Below are positions 36,526 through 46,709 of a stretch of 49,629 bases of DNA, piece by piece. Position numbers and translations under genes: made by a program. The notes beneath the pieces are model-generated. The model was not told the origin of the DNA. It did no database searches and saw only the letters and a list, made by a program, of their open reading frames with translations. Every line of letters begins with the position of its first letter. Within the stretch, counting starts at the first letter, position 1. This stretch comes from a virus. The DNA lies in the IMG/VR virus record IMGVR_UViG_3300005288_000005, positions 1 through 49,629 of that record. The stretch is one strand, 5' to 3'.

Positions 36526-38007
36526 ATGCAAGAGCTTCAGTGGTGCATTAGCCAGGGATATACGAACCAGCAAGCAGCTGACCACCTTGGAATTAACGAG
36601 CGCACCGTTCGGCGCTGGAAGGAAAGGCTGAAGGCTGATCCGGTGCAGGTGAGCGCAAACGACGACGGCCAATACGATACGTTCGTCATTACGTCGGCAG
36701 TCAATGCAACAAAGGCACATAACGGCTTTCTAGCCTCGCTGCACACCTACTGCGCGCATAACAACGCCAAGCTGATCGTTCTGCCTATGCGCTATCGCAA
36801 CCCTACGCGCAAGGAAGAAACGCCGGATGATTGGTGGGACTCTCGACTCACTCCGCATATAGTTAACCAGCGCACCAAGCTGTGCCGTGACGTTGTATTG
36901 CTGGCAGACATCAAGGTTCAGCCCACCGCTATCAACCCACTGCAAGGCTGGCTGACGGTATCAGGCACAGACTCAGCGATCCTGGCTCACACGAAGGTCG
37001 CACTTCAATCCGTGCCGACTATGGTTGGTGATGACGCTAAGCTCGTGATGACTACTGGCGCCTGCACTGTACCGCAGTACTCAGACACCAATGCCGGCAA
37101 GAAAGGTGAATTTCATCACACGTTAGGCGCCGTGATTGTCGAGGTTGACCGCAAAGGCACGCATCTTCGCCACGTATTGGGCGAGAGAGACGGCTCATTC
37201 ATTGATCTGACCGCCAAGTACTCGCGTCACGGCGTTGAGGCTGCTCCTGATGCGTCTGTGCTGGTCTTGGGCGATCTACACGCTAGACAGGTAGACAGCA
37301 AGGCGCTTGACGCCACAGAGCGTCTTGCAGTGGCTCTCAAGCCTAAGTCAGTATGCCTGCATGATGCACTAGACTTCTCGTCGGCCTCGCACCATTCAGG
37401 CTACTTCGAGCGCTTCAAGCTGCACGTCACCAAGCAGAACAGCATTCTCAAGGAGCTTGAGGTTACAGCTAAGATCCTAGACCGCATCTCAATGTGGGCG
37501 CCTGAGATTGTCATGGTCGGCTCGAACCATAACGAACACTTCACGCAATACCTATCGAAGTACGAGAACGCGCTAGATCTTGAGAACGCACTGGTTTATC
37601 ACGAGACAAAGGCCGCGATGCTCCGTTCAATTCACGAGGGATCTTACCTTGACCCGTTCAAGTACTGGGTTGACAAGCTGGCATCGACTCCTGATGCGAT
37701 CCACTGGCTTCGACCTGGCGAATCGTTCTCACGCCACGGTATCGAACTCGGATTTCATGGCCATCGAGGTCCGAACGGCGCACGAGGTAGTACGAAAGGG
37801 TTTAGCAACATCGGGGCGCGCACTGTAACCGGCCATAGCCACTCGCCAGCCATCATTGATGGCGCGTATTGCGTAGGTACGACCAGCAAGCTCAAGATGG
37901 GCTACAACGAGGATTCGCCGTCATCCTGGCACCATACGCATTGTATTGTGTACGCAAACGGTAAAAGAGCCCTTTTGCATTGCATTTCAGGCAAGTTTTT
38001 TCGATAA
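36526..38007 (+). CDS. N-terminal HTH fused to a calcineurin-like metallophosphoesterase (493 aa)
   Basis: HTH GYTNQQAADHLGINERTVRRWKERL. Ordered MPE motifs GDLHA, GSNHNEH, FHGHRG, TGHSHSP. Confidence 0.7.
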   Translation: MQELQWCISQGYTNQQAADHLGINERTVRRWKERLKADPVQVSANDDGQYDTFVITSAVNATKAHNGFLASLHTYCAHNNAKLIVLPMRYRNPTRKEETPDDWWDSRLTPHIVNQRTKLCRDVVLLADIKVQPTAINPLQGWLTVSGTDSAILAHTKVALQSVPTMVGDDAKLVMTTGACTVPQYSDTNAGKKGEFHHTLGAVIVEVDRKGTHLRHVLGERDGSFIDLTAKYSRHGVEAAPDASVLVLGDLHARQVDSKALDATERLAVALKPKSVCLHDALDFSSASHHSGYFERFKLHVTKQNSILKELEVTAKILDRISMWAPEIVMVGSNHNEHFTQYLSKYENALDLENALVYHETKAAMLRSIHEGSYLDPFKYWVDKLASTPDAIHWLRPGESFSRHGIELGFHGHRGPNGARGSTKGFSNIGARTVTGHSHSPAIIDGAYCVGTTSKLKMGYNEDSPSSWHHTHCIVYANGKRALLHCISGKFFR

Positions 38008-39114: not shown

Positions 39115-39338
39115 CCACAATCAACGACCTAGAACAAATCAACACCATGGCGATGATGACCATGTGCGAGCTTGGGTATGCGCGGTATGAGCGGTTTCGT
39201 GCAGGGCTGAAGATGGATGAAGAGGCGTGCGACAAGCTTCGTCAGTTCGTTTATTCGAATTCAGACATGGAGCACGAGTTGGAGCTTCGAATAAAAGTGG
39301 CCCCGATGTACAAAAAGAGTGTACAATTGCATCACTAA
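39111..39338 (+). CDS. Hypothetical 75-aa protein, last gene of the rightward early/middle block
   Basis: ATGA coupling. Followed by a strong terminator. Confidence 0.65.
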   Translation: MTTINDLEQINTMAMMTMCELGYARYERFRAGLKMDEEACDKLRQFVYSNSDMEHELELRIKVAPMYKKSVQLHH

Positions 39339-39374
39339 CCGAATCGCAGCGTCCCCCTCCGTAGCGATACCTTA

Positions 39375-39403
39375 AGACCCGTGAACCGTCCGGGTCTTTT
39401 TTT
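39375..39403 (+). terminator. Intrinsic terminator ending the early/middle block
   Basis: GACCCG-tgaaccgtc-CGGGTC followed by seven T. Confidence 0.85.
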
Positions 39404-39470
39404 GCCTGCGATTCCAGTTAAACAGCACTTTTCGCACAAATCAGCCAGAATATTAGCGTTTTCGCGCTCG

Positions 39471-39479
39471 TGGTATCAT
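39471..39479 (+). promoter_or_regulatory. Candidate extended -10 promoter TGgTATCAT (early class)
   Basis: Lies in an ORF-free region. Predicted start near 39486. Confidence 0.45.
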
Positions 39480-39485
39480 TCTCCC

Positions 39486-39729
39486 GCCTAGTTCCAATGC
39501 AGGCCGTCCTAGCCACTCGTTATTAGGGCTCGATTTGCGGCTCGTAAGTCGCAACCATCCAGCGACAATGCCAGCGCAGAACCTGAAATTCTGTTAGCTT
39601 CTGGATAAGACCGAGAAAGCATGGTGAGTCTAGAGAAGTTCACCCGTCGCAGCCCGCACACGCGGATCAACACACGCCCCAAGCCTATGACCAGAAATGG
39701 TTATGCTCAAATCGGGGCGTTTTTATTTT
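39486..39729 (+). ncRNA. Candidate ~245-nt untranslated transcript (late leader or ncRNA)
   Basis: Bounded by a promoter and a terminator. The longest ORF is a 36-aa Arg-rich frame (39621..39731) with a poor SD. Ends not mapped. Confidence 0.4.
39674..39729 (+). terminator. Compound intrinsic terminator
   Basis: Outer stem ACGCCCC/GGGGCGT encloses an inner 7-bp hairpin with a GAAA loop, followed by TTTTTATTTT. Confidence 0.7.
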
Positions 39730-39740
39730 AGCGAAAGGTG

Positions 39741-39769
39741 TTGACGCGCAATCCTGGCAGGCGTAGATT
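39741..39769 (+). promoter_or_regulatory. Sigma70-like promoter TTGACG-N17-TAGATT
   Basis: 12 nt after the terminator and 35 nt before the 39804 start. Confidence 0.6.
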
Positions 39770-39803
39770 TGGCTCATCGGAACGAACAACGGAGCAAGAC
39801 GAG

Positions 39804-39974
39804 ATGAATAAATACAGTTTGCGTGTCAAGTACGCTGGTGGTGTCGCATACCACAAATTCAGCTACCAGGCGCCTGACATGGAATTTGCGGTTAAGAGCG
39901 GTTACGAATTCGCAAAAGCTCAAAACCCAGGAATTCCGATTGTCCAGTTCATAGTTGAATCCCGCGACCGCTAA
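39804..39974 (+). CDS. Hypothetical 56-aa protein in a single-gene unit
   Basis: ATG with a GGAG SD. The track ORF start at 39738 lies inside the promoter. Confidence 0.6.
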   Translation: MNKYSLRVKYAGGVAYHKFSYQAPDMEFAVKSGYEFAKAQNPGIPIVQFIVESRDR

Positions 39975-39991
39975 CCAACCCAGCCCACCTC

Positions 39992-40019
39992 AAGCCCTCT
40001 TAACCGAGGGCTTTTTATT
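39992..40019 (+). terminator. Intrinsic terminator
   Basis: AAGCCCTC-ttaacc-GAGGGCTT-TTTATT. Confidence 0.8.
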
Positions 40020-40060
40020 GCCCGCCAAAAAGTGATATCAAAAAGCTACCGAACCAAAAA

Positions 40061-40069
40061 TGATATCCT
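40061..40069 (+). promoter_or_regulatory. Candidate extended -10 promoter TGaTATCCT (early class)
   Basis: A second TGATATC lies 28 nt upstream, at 40033. Confidence 0.4.
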
Positions 40070-40106
40070 TGTTCCAATGTTTACATTCCTTAAACCCCAG
40101 ACTCTC

Positions 40107-40427
40107 ATGAAGCCAAATAAAATGCCTGACTCCCCTAACGGCTGGTTTAACCTGCTGTCGAACATGCCAGGACCACTTCAGGCATTCGGCGCAGCTATCA
40201 TTACTGCGGTTCTCCGCGTCTACTATGACAAATCAGAGACGAGCTGGCAGCGTGTAGGCCTAGAGGGTGCATTGTGTGCCTGCCTAGCTACCGGGCTGTC
40301 TATGGTCAGCGCCTACTTCGGTCTGCCCGAAAACTCAGGCGTGTTCATCGGCACATTCGTTGGTTTCATTGGCGTCATTAAGTTCCGTGAGTACATGGGA
40401 AGGTTGCTGGATAAGCGGACTGACTGA
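40107..40427 (+). CDS. Holin, three TM helices, possible dual-start (MKPNKM)
   Basis: Three hydrophobic segments and a charged C-terminus KFREYMGRLLDKRTD. In-frame Met codons at 40107 and 40122. The upstream alternatives at 40032 and 40077 lack an SD. Confidence 0.6.
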   Translation: MKPNKMPDSPNGWFNLLSNMPGPLQAFGAAIITAVLRVYYDKSETSWQRVGLEGALCACLATGLSMVSAYFGLPENSGVFIGTFVGFIGVIKFREYMGRLLDKRTD

Positions 40428-40443
40428 TCCTCCGTGGTAAGAT

Positions 40444-40467
40444 AGCCTCCTATATGGAGGCTTTTTT
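40444..40467 (+). terminator. Intrinsic terminator whose 3' arm carries the terS SD
   Basis: AGCCTCC-tatat-GGAGGCT-TTTTT, then ATG at 40468. Confidence 0.7.
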
Positions 40468-40962
40468 ATGGCAAACAGACCCATGGTTCACACTGGCGAT
40501 AAGGTCACAGGGAAAGGGCGCTCAAGGACTTTTGAGACGCCTGAAGATCTGATGGTAGCGTGTGAAGAGTACCTAGAGTGGAACGAGGCTAACCCTCTTC
40601 TCGCTGCTCAGCCGTTCCACTTTCAAGGCACGATCATCATGGCCGAGGTGCCTAAACCTCGCGCTCCGTCGATTGTGAGTCTCTGTACGCATCTTGGTAT
40701 TCATCGCCACACGTGGCAAAACTACCGCAAGTCCGAAGAATTCGATCTTGTGTGCATCGAGATCGAAGGCCGGATGAGCGAATACAAATTCCAGAACGCT
40801 GCTGCTGGCTTGATGAATTCGACGATTATCATTCGTGACCTCGGGCTCACTGACAAATCAGAAGTCAACAGCACAGGCACCGTAACCCACGTCAACTACT
40901 CCCCCGCAGACTACAAGCAGGCCGAACTAGAGCTAGGGAACAAGCTCGATGACCTCGACTAA
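40468..40962 (+). CDS. terS: Terminase small subunit
   Basis: RSRTFETPEDLMVACEEYLEWNEANP pattern. Overlaps terL. Confidence 0.75.
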   Translation: MANRPMVHTGDKVTGKGRSRTFETPEDLMVACEEYLEWNEANPLLAAQPFHFQGTIIMAEVPKPRAPSIVSLCTHLGIHRHTWQNYRKSEEFDLVCIEIEGRMSEYKFQNAAAGLMNSTIIIRDLGLTDKSEVNSTGTVTHVNYSPADYKQAELELGNKLDDLD

Positions 40963-43903: not shown

Positions 43904-44806
43904 CTAGCCTAGCTTTCTCTTGGCTCGCTCTATGATTGCTGGCGAAAGTGGATTGCCTTTCTCATCAACCAATATTTCCACGGTCGAGCACTTGCAGTTG
44001 ATCATGTTCGGCGTAATTGCCCACCAGTCTCTCTCTTCCTGAATACTGTAAATCTTTGAGTGCCGTGCTCGATGGCTGGGACGGGTCGAGGGTGACAGTG
44101 CAGAAATATGCATTAAGCGCGAGTTAATCCCCAAGCTAGTCTGCGCATCTTGCGCCTCATCCATGCGTGCCTGTCGAAACGCATTCGTAACTTCAGTCCG
44201 CGCAATCCTCTCAGCGCGAGACTTATTCACCCCTGTACGCGCCTGAATATCCTTTGCGATCACTCGTGGATTCTGGCCGGCGATCATTCCTCGCGTTAAC
44301 GTCTGCGCAAGATCCGATTTTAGCGTGCCGGCAAATCCCTGCATTAGCTCGAACTCGCGAGCAGCTAGCAGACTGATCCGCTTGCGATACGGCGGACTGA
44401 ATATGATCGCGTCAAGACTCGGCCTGCTCAATGCATACAGCTCGCTTTGAACTGTCAGGTTGGCTGCCGTCATAGCCGTACCCTGAACATAGGATGGCTC
44501 CACGTACGAGCGGAGGCTCCAAAGTTCTTGCTCCCCACCCTCCAGAATGATCAGATTAATGATCCTCTCAATCTCGGAACTAATGCCAGCCAGGATCGCC
44601 TGGTCAAGCTCGAATTGATACGTTGTAGCATTTACCTCAAGCGCATTCAGAGTCACTACCGTGTAATTCTGTTCGCCGAGGATGCGCAGGACTTCTTTGC
44701 CAATCGCAGTGACTCGGCGGTCGAAGTCTTTCATGAATTTTCTTTCGCGTGCGTCTTGGCCGGTCGGGTCTGAAAGAGAGCGGGGAAGCACGGGCGAGCC
44801 GGCCAT
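43904..44806 (-). CDS. Head morphogenesis protein, Mu F / SPP1 gp7-like
   Basis: ATG at 44806 with an AAGGA SD (the track uses TTG 44854). C-terminal RPSHRARHSKIY...NCKCS motif. Confidence 0.75.
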   Translation of the reverse strand: MAGSPVLPRSLSDPTGQDARERKFMKDFDRRVTAIGKEVLRILGEQNYTVVTLNALEVNATTYQFELDQAILAGISSEIERIINLIILEGGEQELWSLRSYVEPSYVQGTAMTAANLTVQSELYALSRPSLDAIIFSPPYRKRISLLAAREFELMQGFAGTLKSDLAQTLTRGMIAGQNPRVIAKDIQARTGVNKSRAERIARTEVTNAFRQARMDEAQDAQTSLGINSRLMHISALSPSTRPSHRARHSKIYSIQEERDWWAITPNMINCKCSTVEILVDEKGNPLSPAIIERAKRKLG

Positions 44807-44815
44807 AAATAATCC

Positions 44816-44845
44816 TTGCGCTATTCGTTGGGCTTGGGGTAGATT
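44816..44845 (+). promoter_or_regulatory. Candidate promoter TTGCGC-N18-TAGATT
   Basis: Lies in the 62-bp gap between divergent genes. Confidence 0.35.
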
Positions 44846-44868
44846 GTACGCCAAACAGGAGGGATGAA

Positions 44869-45276
44869 ATGCTTAAAGATCGGCTCAGAAAGCAGGTAAT
44901 GGAGTGGTGCGATAAGGCGTATCCGAAGAAGCTGGAGATATTCCGAGATGATCGGTTCAGGCCATTATTCAATAATCGCTGTCAGATGAATTCGTCGGCA
45001 CTGGTCGCGCAAGGTGATAGTGTCGCCATTGTCGAATGCGTGATCATCAATGATGACGACTGCACGCTTCACTATATAAATCTTGACGATCAAGGCCGGT
45101 ACTTCGACGCAACGCTCGGGCATGAATATCTGAAATGCGATTATCGGCTGATCAGGATTTATAGAGAGCTGCCGATGTTCTCAGGCGACCACTTGACAGC
45201 AGAGAAGAGGCGCATCTGTCTTGAGGCACTAGGAAAATGGAAGTACAAGCTGAATGATCCGCTAGACATGCTGTAA
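44869..45276 (+). CDS. Hypothetical 135-aa protein between the MuF-like and portal genes
   Basis: AGGAGGG SD. Followed by a bidirectional terminator. Confidence 0.7.
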   Translation: MLKDRLRKQVMEWCDKAYPKKLEIFRDDRFRPLFNNRCQMNSSALVAQGDSVAIVECVIINDDDCTLHYINLDDQGRYFDATLGHEYLKCDYRLIRIYRELPMFSGDHLTAEKRRICLEALGKWKYKLNDPLDML

Positions 45277-45308
45277 AAACAAAGCCCCAATCAAGGGGCT
45301 TTTTTTAT
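45277..45308. terminator. Bidirectional intrinsic terminator
   Basis: AAAGCCCC-aatcaa-GGGGCTTT-TTTTATT. Confidence 0.85.
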
Positions 45309-46675
45309 TGCGCTGGATTCGCCGGATCAGGTGGCGGCGCCACATCAGGCAGCGGCGGCAACTCTACATCGTTGTCATAGCCACCAACCTCGCGCATCTC
45401 TTCAGCAGTAAACACTGGCTGACCACTAGACAGCATTTTCGCGTTCACGTCAGCCATCTTCTGGACAATCGACATCTTCTCATCCTTGCTAGCCTCAGTC
45501 AGATCATCCCAGCAAACCGAGAACTCGACAGTCAGCAGGACACCCAGGCGCATCAGATGATCAACGAAAGTCTCGATATCCGAAGACAGCACGCTAACCC
45601 GGCGACCTTGGCAGCGCTTGTTAAACGTCTTCTGGTCCTCAGTCGATGCACGTTCTCCAGTTTGATTGCCAACAATGATCTTGGAGGGAATACGGATAGA
45701 GGCGCAGAAGGATTGCAGCGATACATCGAAGGCCGGCACTGGATCAGGAACATTCGCCACCAAAGGAGTTACAGACGCGCCCTTAGTGATTACCGTCTGG
45801 TCCTGCCCACGGTTCATGCCGCGTGTTACTTCGTCAAAGATCTCCTGAAGCTCTCCAGTGGCTACCCCGTGTGCGCGGGCGATGGCGTCTAGATCCACTT
45901 CCTTGTCGAAGTTGATCGCCAATTGACGGCTGGCATTCTTCAGGAACGATTCGCCAGAGCCACCTAGAACCTTCTCCATGTTCACGCAGTCATTGAAGCC
46001 TGCCTTCAGGAATGGAATGCCGTTGCGCATGTCGCCGATTACGACAACTCGATCAGGGTGGACGGTAACAATTCGGCCGGGTTCAGCGGTGAAGTTGTCA
46101 TTCAGGGCATTTTCGGAGTAGATGAACTCCTTTGGCTGCCCAAAGTTTGCGGCTAGCGGATCATCGAACCATGCCGAAACGCGAATTTGCGCTTCCCATG
46201 CAGGAATAAGATTAATCAACTGCTGCTCGGAGGCGCGAACAACCGGCTGATCCCACTGCTTAGAATCCTTGAATTGCAGCAGAATGCACGAATAACGCCC
46301 AACCAAGCGGCGCATATCGGCATCGCGGAACTTCTCCCACAGTTTCAGGCGCTTGGCTAGCTTCTTGAATTGTTTCTCCCAAGGAGTCGGAGCTTCTGCC
46401 CGATCTTCTTCGTCGCCCTCGATGACTTCGGGATCACTGGACCAGCAATGCTCGTTAAGCGTCATCACTGCGCCGTGAGCAATGCCGCCGCGCTCGAACA
46501 GGCGATAGTAGTCATTGAAGCACAGAGCGTCCTTGTAGCCGTAGCTGCACCAGGCATCAGGCCGCTTGTTATCAATCCCACCACTCAGCAGCGACTGGCG
46601 ACTTGCAACAGCCTGCCGCTCGCTCAGTGCCGAGTTAAGCGCCAAATCTAAAGCAGGCGTGCGTTTCACAGTCAT
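45305..46675 (-). CDS. Portal protein (DUF1073-like)
   Basis: About 456 aa. ATG at 46675 with GGAG 8 nt upstream (alternative ATG at 46702). Pro-rich C-terminus. Neighbours the MuF-like gene. Confidence 0.7.
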   Translation of the reverse strand: MTVKRTPALDLALNSALSERQAVASRQSLLSGGIDNKRPDAWCSYGYKDALCFNDYYRLFERGGIAHGAVMTLNEHCWSSDPEVIEGDEEDRAEAPTPWEKQFKKLAKRLKLWEKFRDADMRRLVGRYSCILLQFKDSKQWDQPVVRASEQQLINLIPAWEAQIRVSAWFDDPLAANFGQPKEFIYSENALNDNFTAEPGRIVTVHPDRVVVIGDMRNGIPFLKAGFNDCVNMEKVLGGSGESFLKNASRQLAINFDKEVDLDAIARAHGVATGELQEIFDEVTRGMNRGQDQTVITKGASVTPLVANVPDPVPAFDVSLQSFCASIRIPSKIIVGNQTGERASTEDQKTFNKRCQGRRVSVLSSDIETFVDHLMRLGVLLTVEFSVCWDDLTEASKDEKMSIVQKMADVNAKMLSSGQPVFTAEEMREVGGYDNDVELPPLPDVAPPPDPANPAQ

Positions 46676-46709
46676 AAAATGGACTCCATAAATTATTTCC
46701 ATTATACCC

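Follow-up and report, generated by a model that had tools for sequence, protein, structure and literature searches.

An abiF-type antitoxin hairpin without an abiF gene in a metagenomic phage genome and its possible role as a decoy for host AbiF

Introduction

What is the role of a short RNA unit without open reading frames (ORFs) that lies directly before the lysis and packaging genes of a phage? This question is raised by the window analyzed here, the whole 49,629-nucleotide (nt) stretch of IMG/VR virus record IMGVR_UViG_3300005288_000005, which by its sequence is a complete phage genome of approximately 49.6 kb. The gap in question (39339-39803) is located between a conserved gene for a 75-amino-acid (75-aa) protein and a 56-aa ORF, and the order on its 3' side is the 56-aa ORF, a lambda-S-type holin (PF05106), a P22-gp3-type terS, and terL. 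An identical metagenomic copy (L222), whose genes were called independently, has no gene in the gap. The initial annotation of the window had described terminators, an extended -10 promoter, and an ORF-free RNA at this locus, all of which are present; the discrete promoter-to-terminator RNA unit that it proposed is borne out by the predicted fold, by conservation in relatives, and by the absence of a gene call in the identical copy. It compared the layout with a lambdoid late leader and listed a regulatory or anti-defense noncoding RNA (ncRNA) as an alternative. We favor the latter, as the RNA ends in an abiF-type hairpin and no AbiF is found in the window.

AbiF (Abi_2) is a widespread abortive-infection RNase, and phage escape from it is little understood beyond one lactococcal hairpin. 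Its partner, the abiF RNA, is a type III antitoxin that binds the dimer of this HEPN RNase and blocks its active site (PMC12373285, PMC12737573). Neutralization by direct binding occurs in cis and in trans, and the RNA doubles as a terminator upstream of abiF (PMC12373285, PMC12737573, PMC13064643). On balance, we lean toward reading the window hairpin as an orphan antitoxin mimic, that is, toward a phage RNA that acts as a decoy and neutralizes the AbiF of the host.

The 3' hairpin as an abiF-type RNA

The structural marks of abiF RNAs, namely an outer stem, a bulged A, an AGC/GCU step, and a 6-nt CAAAUC loop, are all found in the hairpin at the 3' end of the unit (Table 1). Its AGC (39682-4) pairs with GCU (39705-7), and its internal loop on the 3' side is CAAAUC (39708-13). 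When 1.2 kb (39300-40500) were scanned permissively with Rfam, the search matched the abiF family, RF03085, at 39675-39720 with 28 bits (E 0.014) and otherwise returned noise only. In this alignment all conserved unpaired nucleotides of the family are matched and the apical loop is longer; the minimum-energy fold of the hairpin is the family structure. At the gathering threshold, Rfam searches of the window, 17 relatives, and 12 loci of a second phage lineage yielded tRNAs and otherwise nothing.

Relatives were collected in two ways. A first set of 20 IMG/VR loci was retrieved through the hairpin pattern, and a second set of 43 loci (42 usable) through the neighboring 75-aa protein, independently of any RNA feature; homolog and AbiF searches in relatives spanned approximately 60 loci. 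Across 18 distinct phage variants of the hairpin, 98.8% of cells are paired and three pairs carry double changes. The outer and apical stems vary with compensation, and the bulged A, the AGC/GCU step, and CAAAU are fixed. The covariation check that had been suggested for related phages thus gave compensating stems around constant signature nucleotides.

A gapped pattern of 19 conserved nucleotides was then scanned over viral contigs and bacterial genomes. Viral contigs gave 58 matches, nearly all with a complementary outer stem, and bacterial genomes gave at least 120; among the bacterial matches listed, 88 were stemmed, 33 were stemless, and none belonged to a prophage relative of the window. 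Phage and bacterial motifs can be very close to each other: 2 of 34 positions separate the AbiF-linked bacterial motif L181 from the phage motif L049, both of which have an extended apical stem. Furthermore, the 5' flank ACAAUAC/ACACAC, which lies outside the search pattern, is common to AbiF-linked motifs of this kind and the phage motifs. One bacterial AbiF locus (L163:1769-1927) contains two tandem abiF motifs with 43.5 and 29.1 bits, like RCd22 of Clostridioides difficile, and its second copy indicates that sub-threshold copies occur in genuine systems.

Two further observations concern hairpins outside the usual context. In the relative L069, a minimal abiF hairpin has no U-tract and is followed by another module and a terminator, which argues that the hairpin is not kept merely as a terminator. 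In the second lineage, divergent abiF-like hairpins with the outer stem CCGAU/AUCGG are present in L240 (26.9 bits) and L228 (22.4 bits). Since both loci were fetched through another module of the RNA, block A, and not through the hairpin, they provide an independent sighting of the two modules together. We regard it as very probable that the window hairpin is homologous to abiF RNAs.

Orphan status of the hairpin

Despite this resemblance, an Abi_2 (PF07751) gene does not lie directly downstream of the phage hairpin; the 56-aa ORF or the holin follows instead. A six-frame search of the window with hidden Markov models (HMMs) detected no Abi_2/AbiF, PADLOC found no AbiF among the 64 window ORFs, and Pfam assigned no Abi_2 to these ORFs among 25 of 27 families listed. 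The approximately 60 relative loci likewise contained no Abi_2/AbiF.

To place this in a wider setting, linkage was counted for stemmed motifs with at least 1 kb of downstream sequence only, and an AbiF gene within 2.5 kb was scored as linked. Among the matches listed, 48 of 71 bacterial loci were linked and 23 were not. The corresponding figures were 3 linked and 20 unlinked for unrelated viral contigs (3/23) and 0 and 13 for the phage group of the window. For the bacterial loci among the matches listed, the difference from unrelated viral contigs is significant (Fisher p = 6e-6). Stemless pattern matches were never AbiF-linked (0/42 among the matches listed), and several viral orphan motifs have no U-tract. 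Orphan abiF RNAs thus look like a general phage feature.

Canonical abiF motifs without an AbiF gene were seen in the unrelated phages L004/L051, L009, L038, L042, L053, L057, L058, and others. The neighbors of orphan viral motifs include holin, terS, helicase-primase, endonuclease VII, gp32, UvsX-like, Mu-type protease, and terL genes.

An orphan abiF match has been annotated, without interpretation, in cyanophage S-CREM1 (PMC9964418). No proposal of such RNAs as anti-AbiF decoys was found in the literature searched, which did not cover the 2025 Cell paper on AbiF.

The orphan hairpin could also be the relic of a phage-borne AbiF module that lost its toxin and is now neutral or only a terminator. 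AbiF systems on prophages do adjoin lysis genes, as RCd22-abiF does by the holin of the C. difficile prophage phi027 (PMC12373285), and a few viral contigs (L017, L046, L001) carry intact motif-AbiF pairs; moreover, the hairpin is dispensable in half of the relatives. However, no AbiF remnant was found in the approximately 60 relative loci, and the signature is kept in 18 variants with compensatory stem changes and likewise in the second lineage, which points to ongoing selection. We therefore give a relic only a slim chance.

Proposed action of the RNA and points against it

As the phage encodes no AbiF, its orphan copy would most likely act in trans as an antitoxin mimic. Transcription would start near 39486 from an extended -10 promoter that is independent of a -35 element, and the approximately 240-nt RNA would fold as a chain of independent structured modules. 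It would end at the copy of the abiF motif, which together with its U-tract would also serve as an intrinsic terminator. As the RNA accumulated, the abiF hairpin would fill the RNA-binding groove of host AbiF dimers in trans. The orphan copy would stand in for the labile host antitoxin RNA, which would no longer be replenished during infection, so that host AbiF would stay inhibited and abortive infection would be prevented. That the phage RNA binds and neutralizes AbiF is what we infer.

Several points weigh against this reading. The score of 28 bits is below the Rfam gathering score of 37, and the relatives score no better: none of 17 reaches 37 bits, and L087 has 28.2. The range of AbiF-linked motifs that have long apical stems is 36.2-44.7 bits, and the deficit of the window hairpin comes from two swapped outer-stem pairs and a CU->UA change, so its binding specificity could differ. 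A model built from 31 AbiF-linked motifs (R1) gives the window hairpin 43.4 bits (E 3e-10), its sole match in the 49.6 kb; the value is inflated, since the training motifs had been retrieved with the 19-nt pattern, itself derived from the match in the window. Two motifs are required in RCd22 (PMC12373285), against a single one in the window RNA. About half of the relatives have no abiF hairpin. The RNA itself is known from sequence alone, its expression being predicted.

A further weak point is the host, whose carriage of AbiF is presumed: the phage group is known only from metagenomes. Clusters of the window's proteins have metagenomic members only, for example from compost. The closest terL homologs, at approximately 60% identity, are from Pectobacterium, Vibrio, and Klebsiella phages, and searches of deposited phages, E. 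coli genomes, and plasmids revealed no DNA similarity to the gap or the RNA. No similarity was seen between the phage RNA modules and the flanks of bacterial AbiF loci.

Architecture of the RNA unit

The features of the gap and its surroundings are collected in Table 1. The extended -10 is TGGTATCAT (39471-39479), with TG at 39471-2 and TATCAT at 39474-9. An extended -10 promoter requires no -35. The TGNTATCAT motif occurs once in the window against 1.25 occurrences expected by chance, which is weak evidence by itself; with this single occurrence, the motif was dropped as a recurrent promoter of the phage. The promoter is credible because its motif is conserved in relatives: TGnTAT(C/A)(A/G)T and the upstream box occupy the same position in most of the 42 relatives, and the spacing from the promoter motif to the first RNA helix is fixed at 6 nt, whatever RNA comes next. 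The putative start site follows from this spacing, and the promoter's presumed activity from its conservation; its timing is presumed as well.

Table 1. Features in and around the gap between the 75-aa gene and terS (positions in the window; terminators predicted, promoters putative)
Feature	Position	Strand	Fold energy (kcal/mol), z	Description
Hairpin 0	39343..39368	+	-8, z -2.7	3' end of the 75-aa gene mRNA; C-rich loop UCCCCCUC
Terminator T1	39374..39403	+	-13.2, z -3.4	closes the early/nin-like operon; stems 39374-81/39391-98, 7-T run
Promoter of the RNA unit	39442..39479	+		upstream box CAGCCAGAATAT (39442-53), extended -10; no -35 match
Module M75	39484..39552	+	-21.2, z -1.3	three small hairpins at the RNA 5' end
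Block A	39557..39606	+		outer helix AUCCAG/CUGGAU; inner 5-bp stem, 7-nt loop CCUGAAA (39577-93)
Two small hairpins	39619-50 and 39654-65	+		variable linker from block A to the 3' hairpin; from the fold
abiF-type hairpin	39675..39719	+	-21.0, z -4.1 (45-nt hairpin with U-tract, the compound terminator)	outer stem CGCCCC/GGGGCG, bulged A 39681, extended apical stem-loop
U-tract UUUUUAUUUU	39720..39729	+		makes the abiF-type hairpin an intrinsic terminator; RNA of ~240 nt
Second moron	39741..40018	+		sigma-70-type promoter TTGACG-17-TAGATT (39741-69), 5' untranslated region (UTR), 56-aa ORF (39804-39974), T3; from promoter scan and fold
Terminator T3	39992-40013 and T-run	+	-13.6, z -4.4	
Holin-upstream block	40027..40094	+		candidate late promoter/operator; palindrome TGATATCA (40033-40) and TGATATCC (40061-68), 28 nt apart
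Holin gene and T4	40077..40462	+		holin 40077-40427 (PF05106 at 3e-19, phrog_126), then T4
Terminator T4	40444-62	+	-15.7, z -5.1	

A stable G+C-rich hairpin followed by a U-tract, as expected of an intrinsic terminator, is predicted for T1, the abiF hairpin, T3, and T4 (z -3.4 to -5.1). A crude terminator scan was not enriched over shuffled sequences (9 found vs 6.3+/-2.3), and the case for these terminators therefore rests on hairpin strength and conservation.

Two blocks of the gap exceed the flanking genes in conservation, 39556-39612 (~90-96%) and 39668-39728 (88-93%), with an indel hot spot between them. The linker in this hot spot (39619..39665) is replaced or deleted in relatives, or enlarged by 290-360 nt of other RNA modules. 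M75 is optional; among the relatives mapped, only L044/L060, L059, L073, and L090 share it with the window. Modules D and E recur in the leaders of relatives (L003, L011, L059, L067, L072, L087). Module D consists of CCUGUCGCAG...GAGACGCAGGU and has an internal stem with the compensatory variants UACUC/GAGUA and CAUGC/GCAUG; module E is approximately 140 nt long. No Rfam family was matched by modules M75, block A, D, E, G, C, or K, and a tRNA and transfer-messenger RNA (tmRNA) search of the window found none. Two resemblances seen by inspection, of a stretch of M75 to tmRNA and of CUGANGA in the relatives' module E to a hammerhead, were dropped, having no support from Rfam or ARAGORN.

Variability of the cassette among relatives

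The 42 relatives anchored on the 75-aa protein were used to map the modules. Their order is fixed: T1, the promoter, optional modules (M75, A, D, E, G, C), a terminator, optional small-ORF morons, and a conserved holin-upstream block. The abiF hairpin forms the RNA end in 22 of the 42, and unrelated terminators do so in at least 13, among them L061/66/67/72/73/98, L068/81, L070, L089, and L090. L092 has no cassette, L083 has a protein ORF in the slot, and L086 has genes for tRNA-Gly and tRNA-Met there. No RNA module is universal. The unit has its own terminator and a putative promoter of its own, lies between conserved phage genes, and varies between presence and absence in relatives, as morons do. 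The best explanation is that of a moron, a self-contained accessory RNA gene inserted after the end of the early/nin-like operon and ahead of the lysis/packaging genes.

This variability bears directly on the lambdoid late-leader layout proposed initially, in which a short constitutive PR'-like RNA would be halted at the hairpin, as an analog of tR', until an antiterminator allowed read-through into holin, terS, and terL. Several features speak for it: the unit lies between a nin-like region (NinX) and the lysis/packaging genes, four strong terminators precede the essential packaging genes, T4 occludes the ribosome-binding site of terS, and T1 combines an invariant loop with a fully covarying stem, as for a factor-binding hairpin. 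The PR'-tR' (6S RNA) region of lambdoid phages is moreover a cargo slot, with tRNA genes and stx in Shiga toxin (Stx) phages, and with morons. The window resembles it in its site between nin-type and lysis genes, in a short terminated RNA, and as a hot spot for promoter-cargo-terminator insertions that include tRNAs. However, relatives can do without the unit: it is absent from L092, a protein ORF (L083) or tRNA genes (L086) take its place, and its terminator is swapped in at least 13 relatives. An obligatory late-control element would not be expected to be so dispensable, and no RNA module is shared by all. A conserved block with extended -10-like sequences (40033-40068) lies directly upstream of the holin, so that the late genes apparently have their own control. 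Block A of the window is 75 nt further from the promoter than in relatives, which argues against a promoter-proximal pause or loading site.

A suitable antiterminator also fails to appear. As the initial annotation had noted, no Q-like gene is recognizable: Pfam matches of the 64 ORFs (25 of 27 families listed) and PHROGs matches of the upstream genes include no Q family, and no qut-type element was found. The 72-aa zinc-finger-like protein, put forward as a candidate antiterminator, lacks both a gene call in L222 and a homolog in the approximately 60 relative loci. The 75-aa neighbor, predicted to form a two-helix hairpin (predicted local distance difference test [pLDDT] score 74), has no family match, including as an antiterminator. 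Given these results, the late leader is distinctly unlikely, and the proposed layout did not withstand the comparison with 42 relatives.

A packaging site (cos/pac) and a 36-aa Arg-rich peptide (39621-39731) had been raised as further alternatives. In their favor are the short distance to terS, the ends of several metagenomic contigs 130-210 nt past the hairpin, and an ATG-initiated frame of 36 codons. The contigs nevertheless stop at assembly breaks, at the point in the holin-upstream block at which the variants of the holin diverge, and the terS is of the P22 gp3 type, a type associated with a pac site within the gene and with headful packaging. The frame of the peptide belongs to the indel-rich linker, varies or is missing among relatives, and was not called as a gene. 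Both alternatives are highly improbable and were set aside.

Block A, an armless tRNA-like element

Block A is the most conserved part of the RNA, being approximately 90-96% identical in relatives and thus above the flanking genes. Its invariant single strands are CGACAAUGCC (5') and UUA..U (3'); it also has a 3-bp AGC/GCU step, and the loop reads CUUGAAA in some relatives. The element combines a 6-7-bp acceptor-like helix with an anticodon-arm-like hairpin and has no D or T arms. ARAGORN and the Rfam tRNA model RF00005 accordingly call no tRNA in it.

A scan with the core of block A identified 36 viral contigs, 11 of which belong to a different phage lineage. The terL of this second lineage is 27% identical to that of the window and there is no other sharing at the DNA level, yet block A is 91-96% identical over 46-53 nt. 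Its copies are found in L227-L241, for example at L229:6411-6462, L235:5398-5443, and L240:3320-3371. They directly follow tRNA genes or tRNA-like sequences and are again just upstream of terS. The outer helix reads CCACCAG/CUGGUGG in the second lineage vs AUCCGG/CCGGAU; four of its seven pairs are changed on both sides, with a covariation of 0.31 vs 0.12 in shuffles (0/500). Block A is a second mobile RNA module in the same transcript, and as a guess some tRNA-directed activity could have in it a decoy or a processing element.

These features suggest another explanation, a processed cassette of stable RNAs of the tRNA-array type, unrelated to AbiF. Its products would serve translation or counter tRNA-targeting nucleases, and the hairpin would be a terminator, processing, or stability element. 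Block A is an armless tRNA-like element found in tRNA arrays of another lineage, L086 has tRNA-Gly and tRNA-Met in the same slot, and the order of the modules is fixed, as though they descended from a single longer RNA. The tRNA cluster of bacteriophage T4 also encodes two stable RNAs without an assigned function. The hairpin fits this explanation poorly, however: its conserved nucleotides are the abiF signature and not those that a terminator needs, L069 keeps it without a U-tract, and the other orphan abiF motifs of phages often have no U-tract either. We consider such a cassette unlikely.

A broader reading would accommodate both modules. The slot between promoter and terminator before the late genes could be an RNA anti-defense island, in which phages shuffle RNAs that mimic the RNA partners or substrates of immune nucleases. 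It would contain real tRNAs, the armless tRNA-like element (~95% identity across unrelated phages), orphan hairpins of the AbiF antitoxin, and several further modules. We put this forward tentatively, as possible rather than probable.

Comparison with known systems

The orphan antitoxin mimic that we favor can be compared with four kinds of RNA. The abiF RNA itself (RF03085; AbiFr/RCd22) shares with the phage copy the hairpin architecture, the conserved unpaired nucleotides, the U-tract after the hairpin, and the 5' flank of AbiF-linked members with an extended apical stem. The phage copy differs in having no abiF gene, in its 28 vs 37 bits, in two swapped outer-stem pairs, and in being a single motif at the 3' end of a longer mosaic RNA. 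Pectobacterium phage TE escapes ToxIN via a pseudo-ToxI RNA (PMC3475682). In both cases a phage ncRNA resembles a host type III antitoxin and acts, or in the window would act, in trans against an abortive-infection RNase toxin. However, ToxN is not a HEPN AbiF, pseudo-ToxI consists of tandem 36-nt repeats and not of a single hairpin, and its function was shown by escape genetics.

RNA anti-CRISPRs (Racrs) are solitary mimics, found in phages, of the repeats of CRISPR systems (PMC10651486). They are likewise orphan RNA partners of an immune effector in a virus without the effector, although they target Cas proteins; AbiF and Cas13 are not mentioned in that paper. The analogy is close because, as reported, Cas13 descends from AbiF and the repeat in CRISPR RNA (crRNA) goes back to the AbiF ncRNA (PMC12737573, PMC12165695). 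Finally, phage sk1 has a cos-region hairpin that is reported to confer protection from lactococcal AbiF (Rince 2000; confirmed in 2025, PMC13064643, PMC12184496). It too is a phage hairpin near packaging genes that counteracts AbiF, as the window hairpin would. The sk1 hairpin is reported as not resembling the AbiF ncRNA, whereas the window hairpin does.

The window hairpin would join the phage RNAs that mimic the RNA partner of an immune effector. If the reading as an RNA anti-defense island is true, orphan abiF hairpins would correspond, on the side of toxin-antitoxin systems, to RNA anti-CRISPRs; they would be widespread and directed against the reported Cas13 ancestor. That 20 of 23 unrelated viral motif loci have no AbiF nearby suggests that the trick is common. 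For annotation, sub-threshold abiF matches without an adjacent abiF gene are worth keeping in phages. The cassette slot is a place to seek other RNA-based anti-defense elements, such as block A, and this mobile ~50-nt block in the tRNA arrays of other phages could bear on the extra small RNAs in phage tRNA clusters.

Flanking terminators, second moron, and neighboring genes

The unit is followed by a second moron of similar build. Its promoter and 5' UTR with a ribosome-binding site (39741-39803) are common to L002, L005, L019, L049, L061, L073, and L075, with a different small ORF 3' of this TTGACG-17-TAGATT/UTR block in each phage; the 56-aa ORF of the window has no homolog in relatives. Such a block, with its exchangeable cargo, has the appearance of an expression cassette of the kind that is typical in accessory or anti-defense hot spots. 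What had been described as a terminator cascade is best read as tandem self-contained insertions in addition to the resident T1 and T4. Of the three terminator-bounded units claimed after the RNA, those of the 56-aa gene and the holin are present, whereas a separate terS leader is not, since T4 abuts the terS start at 40468.

A sign of regulation lies at the other end of the gap. T1, which has an 8-bp stem and the 9-nt loop UGAACCGUC, is present in 40 of 42 relatives. In 15 distinct versions, seven of its eight stem pairs are compensatory (covariation 0.80 vs 0.25 in shuffles, 0/500), and the loop UG(A/U)(A/U)CCGUC with its closing G-C pair is nearly invariant. Hairpin 0 similarly keeps its CCCCUCC loop in relatives on differing stems. 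Conserved loops over covarying stems are unusual for plain terminators and suggest a factor-binding or regulated hairpin at the early/late boundary; it is T1 that has the signature of a regulated hairpin, not the compound terminator singled out by the initial annotation. Targets in the window complementary to the C-rich loop of hairpin 0 or to the T1 loop were no more frequent than expected by chance.

In nearly all relatives the holin-upstream block is conserved and follows immediately on the terminator that closes the cassette, whichever this is. Its perfect palindrome TGATATCA and the near copy TGATATCC can also be read as extended -10s of the same flavor as the RNA promoter, which makes the block a candidate late promoter or operator. 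Further downstream, the Shine-Dalgarno sequence (GGAGG) of terS (GP3_package) lies inside the 3' arm of T4, which ends 5 nt before the ATG. This arrangement is conserved in L092, and terS transcription and translation start may depend on the T4 hairpin.

Two observations on the surrounding genes were made in passing. A 493-aa protein (36526-38007) combines an N-terminal helix-turn-helix with a metallophosphoesterase core and is a homolog of phage T5 A1 ("DNA transfer protein"; phrog_1745), with 33-40% identity to A1 of T5-like and jumbo phages; such a protein is unexpected in a phage of ~50 kb whose nin and lysis genes are lambdoid-type. The strand opposite to that of terS/terL and the neighboring genes encodes the Mu-F-like head protein (43904-44854) and the portal (45305-46702), an orientation of 43904-46702 that is unusual for a packaging/head module and is confirmed by the gene calls of L222.

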